64,000 bases of DNA. It comes from Eledone cirrhosa. Taxonomy: Eukaryota. Numbering within the stretch: the stretch's first letter is position 1; each line of letters opens with the position of its first letter. Under the pieces are notes generated by a model. That model had not been told where the DNA came from and did no database searches. It saw only the letters and a list, made by a program, of their open reading frames with translations. Location of the stretch: NCBI GenBank assembly GCA_964016885.1, contig OZ024758.1, positions 10,788,001 to 10,852,000 of the forward strand. Reading direction: 5' to 3'. The position numbers and the translations under genes are program-made. Of the stretch, positions 10,837 to 60,224 are shown piece by piece.

Positions 10837-11107
10837 TGTTTATAAAATATAGGTTATGTTCCAGTCTGACGCTTTTATGACTTCCCTCCCTTTATCTTAG
10901 CAAATATCTCATGGAATAAGTTTTGGATAATTTAAAATTATCATTTTAATAATAATAATAATGATTCTGATGATAATTGCATAGGTGTCTCTTTTTAATG
11001 AGACGTGATGTACAGACATACATTTTTGACGCTGCGTGGGTGTGTACTGAACACACACATACATACATATATATATATATATGTACATTCACGTATGTGT
11101 GTATATT

Positions 11108-11154
<47 letters not shown>

Positions 11155-11173
11155 TCACGTATGTGTGTATATT

Positions 11174-11236
<63 letters not shown>

Positions 11237-11240
<4 letters not shown>

Positions 11241-11425
11241 ATGTTTAACCCCGACGGTAGAGCTCAAGCCGTCTCGACGGCTATTTCTGCGTCCAGAAAT
11301 AGCCGTCGAAACGGCTTGAGCTCTGCCGTCGGGGTTAAACATTTTCCTATTACCCACTCTACTACCCTAAGTATTGAGTACTCTGATGCGTTATGGTCCA
11401 CCTGGTTCCTTACCACACTTCCTTC

Positions 11426-11428
<3 letters not shown>
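11237..11428 (+). mobile_element. TA-embedded fold-back element (family A; putative PLE pLTR end with hammerhead 3' half)
   Basis: Hairpin 11237-11346 (loop cgtc) followed by tail tacccactctactaccctaagtattgagtac...ccttcgtt; (TA)n on both sides. Confidence 0.8.
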
Positions 11429-28950: not shown

Positions 28951-29062
28951 GAGCTCTGGCGTCGGGGTTATACTTTTTCCTATTTCCCACTCTACTACCC
29001 TAAGTATTGAGTACTCTGGTGCGTTATGATCCATCTGGTTCCTTACCACAATTCCTTTGTTA
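28951..29062 (+). mobile_element. Family A element, truncated (no inverted arm)
   Basis: gagctctggcgtcggggttatactttttcc plus conserved tail, ending in (TA)n. Confidence 0.8.
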
Positions 29063-30598: not shown

Positions 30599-30791
30599 TA
30601 ACGAAGGAAATGTGGTAAGGAACCAGGTGGACCATAACGCACCAAAGTACTCAATACTTAGGGTAGTAGAGTGGGTAATAGGAACGAGTAGGACCCCGAC
30701 GTCTGAGCTCAAGCCGCTTCGACGGCTAATTCTGGACTCCAGAATTAGCCGTCGAAACGGCTTGAGCTCAGCCGTCGGGGTCCTACTCGTT

Positions 30792-30796
<5 letters not shown>
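30599..30796 (-). mobile_element. Family A fold-back element
   Basis: Tail 30599-30677; hairpin 30678-30796 centred at 30737; (TA)n both sides. Confidence 0.85.
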
Positions 30797-33993: not shown

Positions 33994-34024
<31 letters not shown>

Positions 34025-35039
34025 TTCTCTTTCTTTTATCTCTTTCTCTGTCTCTTTATCTCTTTCTCTGTCTCTTTATCTCTTTCTCTGTCTCTTTATC
34101 TCTTTCTGTCTCTTTCTCTCTTTCTCTCTTTCTCTCTTTCTCTCTCTCTTTATCTCTTTCTCTGTCTCTTTCTCTTTATCTCTTTCGCTCTCCTGTCTCT
34201 CTCTTTCCCTCTCCTGTCTCTCTCTTTCTCTCTCCTGTCTCTCTCTTTCCCTCTCCTGTCTCTCTCTTTCTCTCTCCTGTCTCTCTCTTTCTCTCTCCTG
34301 TCTCTCTCCTGTCTCTCTCTTTCTCTCTCCTGTCTCTCTCTTTCCCTCTCCTGTCTCTCTCCTGTCTCTCTCTTTCTCTCTCCTGTCTCTCTCCTGTCTC
34401 TCTCTTTCCCTCTCCTGTCTCTCTCCTGTCTCTCTCTTTCTCTCTCCTGTCTCTCTCTTTCTCTCTCCTGTCTCTCTCCTGTCTCTCTCTTTCTCTCTCC
34501 TGTCTCTCTCTTTCCCTCTCCTGTCTCTCTCCTGTCTCTCTCTTTCTTTCTCCTGTCTCTCTCTTTCTCTCTCCTGTCTCTCTCCTGTCTCTCTCTTTCT
34601 CTCTCTTTCTCTCTCCTGTCTCTCTCTTTCCCTCTCCTGTCTCTCTCCTGTCTCTCTCTTTCTCTCTCCTGTCTCTCTCTTTCTCTCTCCTGTCTCTCTC
34701 TTTCTCTCTCCTGTCTCTCTCTTTCTCTCTCCTGTCTCTCTCTTTCTCTCTCCTGTCTCTCTCTTTCCCTCTCCTGTCTCTCCCTTTCCCTCTCCTGTCT
34801 TTCTCCTGTCTCTCTCTTTCTCTCTCCTGTCTCTCTCTTTCTTTCTCCTGTCTCTCTCTTTCTTTCTCCTGTCTCTCTCTTTCTCTCTCCTGTCTCTCTC
34901 CTGTCTCTCACTTTCTCTCTCCTGTCTCTCTCTTTCTCTCTCCTGTCTCTTTCGCTCTCGTGTCTCTCTCTTGCGCTCTCTCTTTCGCTCTCCTGTCTCT
35001 CTCCTGTCTCTCTCCTGTCTCTCTCCTGTCTCTCTCTTT
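33957..35039 (+). repeat. ~1.1-kb polypyrimidine minisatellite built from 12- and 21-bp units (ctctcctgtctc / tctctcctgtctctctctttc)
   Basis: Directly visible; almost no A on the + strand after ~34180. Confidence 0.92.
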
Positions 35040-35091
35040 ATTCCTCGACTTCTTTACTGCCTGCTACAGCAGCAAAGTGCACTCTAACTAT

Positions 35092-38044: not shown

Positions 38045-38184
38045 TAATGAAGGAATTGTGGTAAGGAACCAGATGGACCATAACGCACCAGAGTACTGAA
38101 TACTTAGAGTAGTAGAGTGGGTAATAGGAAAAAGTATGACCCCGACGGCTTGAGCTCTGTCGTCGGGGTCATACTTTTTCCTAT
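38045..38184 (-). mobile_element. Family A element with shortened hairpin (38124-38184)
   Basis: ataggaaaaagtatgaccccgacggc...gtcgtcggggtcatactttttcctat plus tail. Confidence 0.8.
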
Positions 38185-49856: not shown

Positions 49857-49860
<4 letters not shown>

Positions 49861-49983
49861 ATGGATTCAGTTTGAGACTGGTTAAATAATTACCGACCAG
49901 TATACTCGATACTCAGGGTAGTAGCATATGGTTATATTATAAAGAGTTGGAACTAGCTGTTGAAACGGCAAGAGGTCAGCCGT
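49857..49983 (-). mobile_element. Diverged family A-like element
   Basis: tactcgatactcagggtagtag resembles the tail and ggaactagctgttgaaacggcaagaggtcagccgt resembles the hammerhead half; (TA)n both sides. Confidence 0.55.
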
Positions 49984-54155: not shown

Positions 54156-55012
54156 TATATATGCTTGTTTATATTTCAGAAAGTTACATTTCTGTATTAT
54201 ATATCTCTTTTTTTTTGGGGGGGGGGTGGGGTGGAGGGGATGTATCCTCTAATCAATTTTCTTTCTAACCTGTTACTGGATATTCAGGATTAGCAATAAT
54301 AGTAGAGCATCGAAGAAAACATTTTCACTCAGAACGCACGAGTTGGACCAGAAACCGTAAAGCATCACTGGTTTTACTGCTACGTTTCTATCGTCCCCGA
54401 AGAGAAAAACGGTAAAGTTGACCAAAGCAGGATTTGAACTTAGAACATAGAAAGTCGTAACTAAATATTGCAAGCAAGGCATTTTTTTCCGATGTTCTAG
54501 CGGTACTGCCAAATCATGCGCCCTTAAAGTCGGATCAGATATTCCAAAACATTCCAAACAAATCCAGAAAAACTTCCGCCAATCTCCTTCACCCCTCAAC
54601 TGGTATTTTATCAACGGCGAAAGGACGAAAAGTAAAGTTGACGTCGGTGGGATTCGATCTTGGAACTCAGAATGACCAGAACCAGCGCAGATGATGCAAA
54701 ATATTCCGTACAACTCTTTAACAATTACACCACCAACCGAAATGTTGAAAGACAAATTTGACTTCGTTGGAATTAGAAGACATGGAGTAGAGAGACAGAA
54801 CAAACGGAACACTTTTAACCCTACTCTCTAAGGACTCAACCCTCTTTAACAGTTCCCCTCTGCAGAAATAATTACCTTATATTACCTTATCGCCCTTCCC
54901 CAAATCATTCAATGCTATTCGTGACAGGATTTCAAGACGGGTGTAGAGAGACAACAAATACCAAGACATGTTATCACACGAAGCTCTACCGACTCAGTCA
55001 ATTAGGTAAAGA

Positions 55013-55803: not shown

Positions 55804-56073
<270 letters not shown>

Positions 56074-58555: not shown

Positions 58556-60036
58556 TATATATATTGTATTATATATATATATATGTGTGTGTGTGTGTAT
58601 GTATGTCTCTTTATTTATATGTATGTGTGTGTGTGTGTGTGTGTGTACATATGTCTTTGTTTGTCATTTTGAGCTATAACATTACAAAACGAACATCCAC
58701 AAGATCATATATATAATAAATGTGCAAATGTCTTTTTTATTTCGCTGCCATATTGACCTAAAATTTGAGAGAAAGTACATCCACAAAACCTCATACATTA
58801 TTAATCAACATCTCACATTAAAGAATGTATGGTATTGTATTTATTTTGACCAATAATAATTAACCAGTAATAATTTTGAATTACTTCGAATACTATCGTA
58901 AATAGCTACTAAAATAGAAGCAATAGCTTCTATGAATTATCTCCCCTAGCAATCGGTCATCTGCTCGCTTTGTGCTGTTTCCGGATGAGGCTTGTTATAT
59001 GTGTGCATGCGCGTGTCTGTGTGTATGTTGAATTGTTCGTTACATTGCGTAAGTGTTTTCTTGTAAATGATTGAGCTAATTTTAAGAGAAGAAAATATTA
59101 AAAATATATATCGAATATATATTTTATATTATTATAGTGATCATTTATATACATGCGAACATACAACTCTCGATCTCCCTCTCTCTCTAGCATTTTATTG
59201 AACAAGAGGGGGGTAAAGGAGCTCTATGGATAGGTTTTAACGATATCACATATTTGGTCGAGTTGCCATTTGCTTCTCCTATTGATAATGATGTTAAAAT
59301 CACAGCATAGCTAAAAACACAGTTTATTCTACTCGGTACGGTTTCAATCTGGCTGTTCGGCTACATACCTTGAATAATGAGACCTGCTCCCTGTCTGCGA
59401 GAAAATATAAAATTCAAAGTAGGCGACAACGCTGTCATTCCACAATGGCGAGTTGTCTCCAGCCCCAACAATAGATATAGGTGGTATTTGATTGAGTGTG
59501 TAGTTAGTGAAGTTTGAATACTCATAGATAGTTAAAGATAAAGCTAGTGGGTAATGGATGACATTCCATGTAAATGAGGGCAATTTGTGAATATTTCACT
59601 TCAGTTGTTCTGGAGTTTCTGTTATGTGACAAACCATCATGACGTTATGCACTTATCAACATACACTGATATTCTACTATGTGACCAGCGTCTCACACTC
59701 ATAATGAAACTAATTATTCAAAAATCAACAAGATAAAAAAAAAATTGATTCATTATTCAATCCAATTTCTTCCAGGCCTACCGCAATTGTTAAACTTCAT
59801 AATATTGATGACTCACCTTCTGATTGATTCACCCTCCACCGATCAGTCATGAATAGGAGTCTACTCTAATTCCATATTTATCATATGAAGCTCATCTGTT
59901 TTGTTATATACAACTGGGAATTGAAACCGTTTAATTCTTATATACTACAATGATTTTATATATATATATATTATAAAGATTCGGGGCGTGACGGCTGAGC
60001 GTTTCAACAGCTAGTTCCAGATTGTTTCATATATAT

Positions 60037-60224
60037 ATAGGAACGAGTAGGACCCCGACAGCTGAGCTCAAGCCGTTTCGACGGCTAATTCAATTAGCCG
60101 TCGAAACGGCTTGAGCTCAGCCGTCGGGGTCCTACTCGTTCCTATTACCCACTCTACTACCCTAAGTATTGAGTACTTTGGTGCGTTATGGTCCACCTGG
60201 TTCCTTACCACATTACCTTCGTTA
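60037..60224 (+). mobile_element. Family A fold-back element (hairpin 60037-60145), preceded by a diverged half-copy at 59975-60028
   Basis: 54-bp arms around 60091 with 1 mismatch, conserved tail, TA flanks. Confidence 0.85.

Follow-up and report, generated by a model that had tools for sequence, protein, structure and literature searches.

Fold-back stubs in TA repeats of Eledone cirrhosa appear to be 5' ends of a Hydra-clade Penelope-like retrotransposon copied from two internal sites of one RNA

Penelope-like elements of the Hydra clade are defined by the protein motifs RW[K/R], DKT, CxCx5C, CxxC, and CxH and by the lack of a CCHH pair, and they target (TA)n (PMC8557442). Copies that are inverted and 5'-truncated are standard for the class, as are tails (PMC8557442, PMC3846280); the inverted ends, tails, and TA targeting of such elements have already been published. 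The origin of the tandem and inverted structures and the role of the hammerhead ribozyme are stated as open in the sections of PMC8557442 and PMC11167929 cited here. The Poseidon protein of Anolis carolinensis cuts and extends both strands in vitro, starting at two internal RNA sites by which the tail is defined; this Penelope-like protein is a predicted dimer, and ribozyme activity is dispensable for insertion (PMC11167929). In Penelope itself, an initiator within the pLTR is part of an internal promoter (PMC2377424). Hammerheads with a U3-A8 core occur in Schistosoma Penelope-like elements and are reported to be active in vitro, and opposed ribozyme pairs have been noted (PMC4209133, PMC3088659).

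We analyzed 64,000 nucleotides of the Eledone cirrhosa genome (assembly GCA_964016885.1, contig OZ024758.1, positions 10,788,001 to 10,852,000), called the window below. The host genome is 3.0 Gb and AT-rich. A sequence-only reading had described six clear and two diverged copies of a fold-back mini-element with half a hammerhead ribozyme. Element positions are counted from the conserved AGT of hammerhead loop II, whose A is +1, and the copies in the window are as follows.

11237 to 11289, minus strand: inverted arm of a fold-back copy, covering the element 5' region from about +5 to +58 and ending near priming site 1
11291 to 11428, plus strand: sense arm of the same copy, from +2 to priming site 2, with the stem II 3' strand, GAAA (11308), stem III, site 1 (11349-11350), and the 77-nt tail
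28951 to 29062, plus strand: single-arm stub without a hairpin, +29 to site 2
30599 to 30796, minus strand: fold-back stub, minus-strand arm +1 to site 2 and plus-strand arm +3 to site 1
38045 to 38184, minus strand: shorter fold-back stub whose apex is the loop III palindrome
49857 to 49983, strand not assigned: decayed stub like an older sister family (weak BLAST matches; a motif common to the sister-family rows)
55832 to 55975, plus strand: inverted arm (+5 to site 1) fused straight to the tail (+60 to site 2)
59975 to 60020, minus strand: decayed single arm like the older sister family (compared by eye; without a BLAST match)
60037 to 60224, plus strand: fold-back stub, inverted arm 60037-60091, sense arm 60092-60224, predicted cut after 60125

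All six clear copies lie where that reading had placed them, with sequence-search E values of 1e-14 to 1e-68, and the 3' half of the hammerhead reads as it had been described: stem II 3' strand, GAAA, stem III with a GAGCTC loop, GUC, and GGGG. Transfer of the parent coordinates places the predicted ribozyme cut of the 11237 copy after 11330. The hairpin shape is right for four of the six (11237, 30599, 38045, and 60037) but not for 28951, a single arm, or 55832, an inverted arm plus tail. The tail, put at about 85 bp, measures about 77 nt between its two end points. Neither diverged copy was upheld as a member of the family: 49857 gave E values of 0.001 to 0.006 only and 59975 gave no sequence match to the family, and both resemble the older sister family, whose long copies have a canonical C3-G8 core. 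An Rfam search of the 64-kb window returned no match.

Targeting of TA repeats was borne out. Five of the six clear copies have pure TA runs on both sides, while 28951 has TA on its right only; as background, (TA)3+ runs and the 6 bp adjoining them make up only 11% of the window. A census of the surrounding 264 kb found 20 clusters of the repeat, flanked by TA runs on both sides in 12 and on at least one side in 18. Just left of the 11237 copy, at 11082-11180, is a short tandem duplication of a TA-rich unit. Elsewhere in the window, an array of a 21-nt (10+11) unit at 34013-35050 gives rise to low-complexity open frames on the minus strand, and the minus strand at 54276-54827 holds a nonrepetitive open frame of 184 codons.

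A 20-nt word from the tail matches the genome exactly 27,987 times. The copies match the pLTR of an autonomous element, which supports the Penelope-like origin first proposed, and long copies run through a complete hammerhead into a frame encoding a reverse transcriptase (RT) and GIY-YIG, the linked frame that had been suggested as a check. On the parent map, the ribozyme core lies at -44, GAAA at +19, the predicted cut after +41, site 1 at +61, site 2 at +137, the ATG at +232, and the stop at +2385. A protein search of the genome recovered many intact 784-codon frames, and one locus holds four tandem 3,531-bp units that differ at 0 to 1 bases, each with a 717-amino-acid open reading frame. 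Partial tandems, an inverted 5'-truncated copy, and a one-sided tail, the insertion structure of EN+ Penelope-like elements, are present, and both end sites of the element read TAT/UAU, matching the TA target. From these sequence comparisons we are fairly confident that the stubs are the 5' end of a young, intact, autonomous Hydra-clade Penelope-like retrotransposon and not a separate family of mini-elements. At one locus (L039), the flanks of a long insertion, about 90 bases on each side, are inverted repeats around a TA run; that insertion apparently lies in the apex of a different fold-back repeat.

The 717-amino-acid parent protein is encoded in a single frame, RT first and then a C-terminal GIY-YIG, with YRDD at 348 and a GIY-YIG-type motif at 592. 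It has RWR at 37 (one conservative change from RWK), DKT at 117, and the CxCx5C linker, CxxC, and CxH at 572, 670, and 698; GxKF/Y and the CCHH pair are absent, and the GIY-YIG core contains one Cys only. One of the protein atlas clusters for the parent has GIY-YIG in 48% of its members. Pfam and NCBIfam searches with two protein fragments from older copies returned no RT or GIY-YIG match, and a PDB sequence search gave nothing useful. Scoring of 7,996 candidates yielded 2,049 relatives, and most of the best of these had an identity of about 40%. The unit length of 3,531 bp misses the size below 3 kb typical of the Hydra clade, which the published description gives as "generally" short. The putative Hydra-clade assignment is made from the motifs, the (TA)n targeting, and by-eye comparison with a published alignment. 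To the eye the element is similar to Hydra-1_Obim, though distinct from it.

The arms were examined in 43 fold-backs that had been picked for their position: 38 lie at the beginning of contig 1, and 5 came from the census. In 41 of the 43, the arms divide the end sites between them, one stopping at site 1 and its partner at site 2, 77 nt further. Among the 82 arms of those 41, 73 stop at +1 to +8, 7 at 0 to -3, and 2 at +13, and none extends upstream of -3; for the arms at 0 to -3, untemplated A runs would mimic the T's of the parent. The joints are blunt, overlap by 1 to 4 nt, or contain inserted bases. Each priming site is followed within a few bases by a motif, and the two motifs are similar in sequence (L149:2786-2830 and 2862-2900, the first being window 60143-60185). 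Both are predicted to fold weakly (z of -1.2 and -1.8), the first of them in a different register.

These junctions bear on how the stubs arise. One explanation, which we regard as highly improbable, is that the fold-back unit is itself nonautonomous (retrozyme- or MITE-like) and is transcribed and recopied by a Penelope-like enzyme. Exact stub joints (13,999 genome-wide with a 28-letter joint pattern) do outnumber exact complete cores (about 5,200), the arms within a copy are more alike than shuffled pairs (2.5 versus 5.2 mismatches), and a few joints recur in the sample, so that some stubs may have been recopied. Against this, the 43 fold-backs carry 37 distinct joint sequences, their arms bear the diagnostic bases of each successive parent subfamily, and long insertions share the head-to-head layout of the stubs. 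Terminal inverted repeats, named in the sequence-only reading as the outcome that would point to a DNA transposon, are absent from all six window copies, as are tandem ribozyme units, and the joints are variable rather than fixed as for a MITE. The stubs are likewise not non-LTR retrozymes, being inverted pairs without the 5' core half and not tandem units of the complete hammerhead. The proposed independent nonautonomous family is not supported: its copies match the autonomous pLTR, joints differ between copies, and arms vary in length.

A second explanation needs only one cDNA, primed at site 2, which would snap back or use an antisense template for self-priming and then copy itself as far as site 1. 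The near identity of the arms and their shared boundary agree with it, and self-priming has been proposed for the palindromic inverted junctions of rotifer elements (PMC3846280). Snap-back, however, needs a site-2 arm that reaches at least about 4 nt further 5', and the site-2 arm leads by at least 4 nt in only 7 of the 41. The site-1 arm is longer in 14, equal in 11, and shorter in 16, several joints are loopless, and untemplated bases lie between arms. We consider this route quite unlikely and favor two cDNAs, each primed at its own site.

The +1 boundary is probably the transcription start of the parent RNA. All 17 of 17 aligned relatives keep the AGT at +1, although they differ elsewhere in loop II, and the AGT fits an initiator consensus from Drosophila work. 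Single-arm copies without a hairpin also stop at +1; the first 100 listed matches represent 59 distinct loci, at which the preceding base is T in 34, G in 13, C in 7, and A in 5. With +1 as the start, transcripts of the element's own promoter would never have the CUGA half, and no self-disabling step, as had been suggested for these insertions, would be needed. The missing CUGA half was likely never part of the copied RNA. Nor is the fold itself stem II turned back; its boundary lies 44 nt downstream of the core. The half-ribozyme had also been proposed as a trans substrate, a role that is unlikely because the stub transcript is predicted to lock it in a near-perfect duplex (-109 to -128 kcal/mol). 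A motif like a splice acceptor precedes +3, but splicing was rejected as the source of the boundary: the arms keep +1 and +2, and there is no constant upstream exon.

An untemplated 5' G is a published sign of a cap (PMC9341517, PMC2831318). In one TA phase, where the parent base is T, the extra base before +1 was G in 66 and C in 5 among the first 100 of 241 listed matches (66/71 versus a local background of 877:252, P = 0.0009). The other phase gave 24 G to 43 C (n = 67; background 299:870, P = 0.07), the sister family 51 G to 11 C among 100 of 101 listed matches (P = 0.45), and a pooled test of the cap signal at +1 versus +2 gave P = 0.09. As a cap trace, the extra G is thus suggestive and not settled, being uneven between TA phases and families. 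The base at +1 after an extra G is often C and not A (10 and 11 of 100 listed matches; compare window 11289-11291), possibly through misreading of a modified first nucleotide. No RNA run contained the sequence, so that the proposed start site, cap, and cleavage are read from DNA junctions.

A minority of fold-backs, 389 genome-wide, have an apex near the predicted cut. Tallies of joints were made by hand from search listings and cover the first matches listed. Among the first 50 of the 389, both arms stop exactly at +42 in 32, of which 24 contain inserted bases and 8 do not; 3 are ambiguous, one arm runs 3 nt longer in 9, and 6 extend beyond that. All 20 copies of this class that were fetched have one arm per site. 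The youngest type has 229 short joints versus 5,430 start-site joints, and 40 of the first 50 short joints listed fall at +42, 21 of them with inserted bases. The cut-site joints that lack an inserted base (8/32 overall and 19/40 in the youngest type) might be explained by longer arms that joined at a 2-nt microhomology. In the older tail type, 15 of 34 short joints lie at the cut versus 2,836 start-site joints, so that cut-site stubs are about sixfold rarer there, relative to start-site stubs, than in the youngest. This rarity was considered as an activity test of the C3.A8 core and dropped, most stubs of that tail type coming from a U3-A8 subfamily.

Mixed joints, with one arm at +42 and the other near +1, accounted for 22 to 32 of the first 100 of 125 listed matches, whereas independent arm stops would predict about 1,300 to 1,700 by our own arithmetic. 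The two arms of one copy therefore share a boundary. This points to a single RNA as the template of both arms, with a 5' end set by either the transcription start or the ribozyme cut, and the stubs that fold at +42 point to ribozyme cleavage in vivo. The stops might instead reflect RT stalling at RNA structure or later deletions at hairpin centers, with no need for the ribozyme to cut in vivo. Long palindromes are unstable, +42 adjoins stem III, some joints fit microhomologies of 2 to 3 nt, and the cap signal is uneven. However, copies free of a hairpin end at +1 as well, +1 is beyond the main helix, where A-U pairing is weak, and by our arithmetic mixed joints fall at least 30-fold short of the number expected from independent stalls. 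Stalling at stem III would, moreover, be expected at +41 and not at +42. We judge stalling or deletion unlikely, and a shared RNA 5' end remains the preferred reading.

The absence of a CUGANGA core 5' of stem II had been offered as the refutation test. It is misleading, since the canonical core has only 7 exact matches genome-wide. In a search for such a core 5' of the hairpin, 4 matches were rejected as mutated inverted arms. Complete hammerheads do exist in long copies, mostly as the U3-A8 variant: complete U3-A8 ribozymes have 2,645 exact matches in the main pattern, a further subfamily of 1,336 complete cores is U3-A8 in 97 among the first 100 listed matches, and complete C3.A8 ribozymes have 1,215 exact matches. 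The hammerhead of the parent pLTR is complete, with a U3-A8 or C3.A8 core, and canonical cores occur only in older relatives. Among 86 older-relative matches (the first 100 of 223 listed, with 14 main-family rows dropped), 67 cores are U3-A8, 11 C3-G8, 7 U3.G8, and 1 C3.A8. Screens based on CUGANGA, and Rfam, which returned no hammerhead match on the intact parent element, miss a very abundant U3-A8 ribozyme.

Modeling supports a type I hammerhead in the parent pLTR, three stems around a conserved core with a 3-8 pair. The youngest form is predicted to fold into a three-way junction with stem probabilities of 0.5 to 1.0, and its folding energy is not better than that of shuffles (z of -0.15). 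Pair 3-8 covaries (UA 8, CG 7, other 2), in a score of a kind that shared ancestry inflates, and it is mismatched in two subfamilies. In a unit-length parent RNA, the halves at opposite ends are predicted to pair into the ribozyme fold (-27.7 kcal/mol). A reading of the parent ribozyme as dead (C3.A8) was dropped, as U3-A8 cores occur in intact and other subfamilies. The first tree, which ran from C3-G8 through C3.A8 to U3-A8, was overturned after 20 copies of a missed subfamily were added; the revised rough tree runs from U3-A8 to C3.A8 and back to U3-A8, with 56 of 107 rows used and bootstrap unsettled. The tree puts the spread of the two subfamilies with the C3.A8 mismatch (at least 1,215 copies) after the older and before the younger U3-A8 ones. 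On this tree, the catalytic base pair 3-8 was apparently lost and then regained.

The anatomy of the copies, the rule of one arm per site, the match of UAU at both sites to the TA target, and the stops at +1 to +8 and at +42 are direct observations. As a whole explanation we think it likely that stubs are made afresh at each insertion, by copying of one RNA from two sites to its 5' end. The enzyme would nick both strands of a TA repeat, and synthesis would begin at two internal sites of the RNA, each copy being extended until it runs off the RNA 5' end. With +1 as the capped start, own-promoter RNA without the CUGA half would yield the common stub. Read-through RNA would carry the whole U3-A8 hammerhead; uncut, it would give long or tandem copies, and the 3' product of cutting would give the rarer stub with its fold at +42. 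End-joining with trimming, microhomology, and untemplated bases would likely unite the ends of the two cDNAs.

Only tentatively, and at slightly less than an even chance, do we propose the combination of a promoter that starts inside its own hammerhead, germ line cutting by the U3-A8 ribozyme with retrotransposition of the 3' product, and a pair of enzymes copying one RNA from two sites at once. If the promoter starts inside the hammerhead, the ribozyme would assemble only on read-through RNA or by end pairing of the unit-length transcript. If an enzyme pair copies one RNA from two sites, this would explain the tail and the inverted pLTR of the class. The element is of a known kind with a published structure, to which the junctions add a map of the probable start, the predicted cut, and the two priming events. 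In one young family, thousands of them place the start at +1, the cut at +41/+42, and both priming sites to the exact position, and, as we read them, they imply one RNA per insertion. Our literature search, which most subscription papers lay outside, found no Penelope-like start or cut mapped from stub junctions. The intact, near-identical copies in the genome are suited to an in vitro assay.

Among described systems, the Hydra clade, with Hydra-1_Obim, is alike in its single RT-then-GIY-YIG frame, its motifs, its insertion into (TA)n, its pLTR hammerhead, its inverted 5'-truncated copy, and its one-sided tail, in the sections of PMC8557442 cited here. Hydra-1_Obim is a different family with a different ribozyme sequence, and the clade differs in unit length (<3 kb versus 3.5 kb here), tail length (30 to 40 versus about 77 nt), and core, which is canonical there but mostly U3-A8 here, with long stems II and III (PMC8557442). 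Poseidon shares two internal RT start sites, extension of both strands, and an AT-rich target, but it primes without target homology, whereas UAU is common to both sites and the target here; its reported RNA sequencing had no reads at the cut, while genomic stubs here end at the predicted cut (PMC11167929). Compared with the U3-A8 variants described in the cited parts of PMC4209133 and PMC3088659, stem III here is stable and the fold is predicted to be monomeric, and on the rough tree two subfamilies spread with C3.A8 before U3-A8 returned. Animal non-LTR retrozymes are similarly noncoding, of Penelope-like pLTR origin, and equipped with a type I hammerhead, but they form tandem units of the complete ribozyme, unlike the inverted half-ribozyme pairs seen here (bioRxiv 10.64898/2026.07.22.740005). 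The Drosophila virilis Penelope is alike in its internal pLTR promoter with an initiator (PMC2377424), and the inverted pLTRs of Adineta vaga are alike in their head-to-head junctions with palindromes (PMC3846280). Antisense self-priming is inferred in the cited parts of those two papers, while the junctions here favor two primed cDNAs from one sense RNA, with a putative start that, unlike in those descriptions, lies inside the ribozyme (PMC2377424, PMC3846280).
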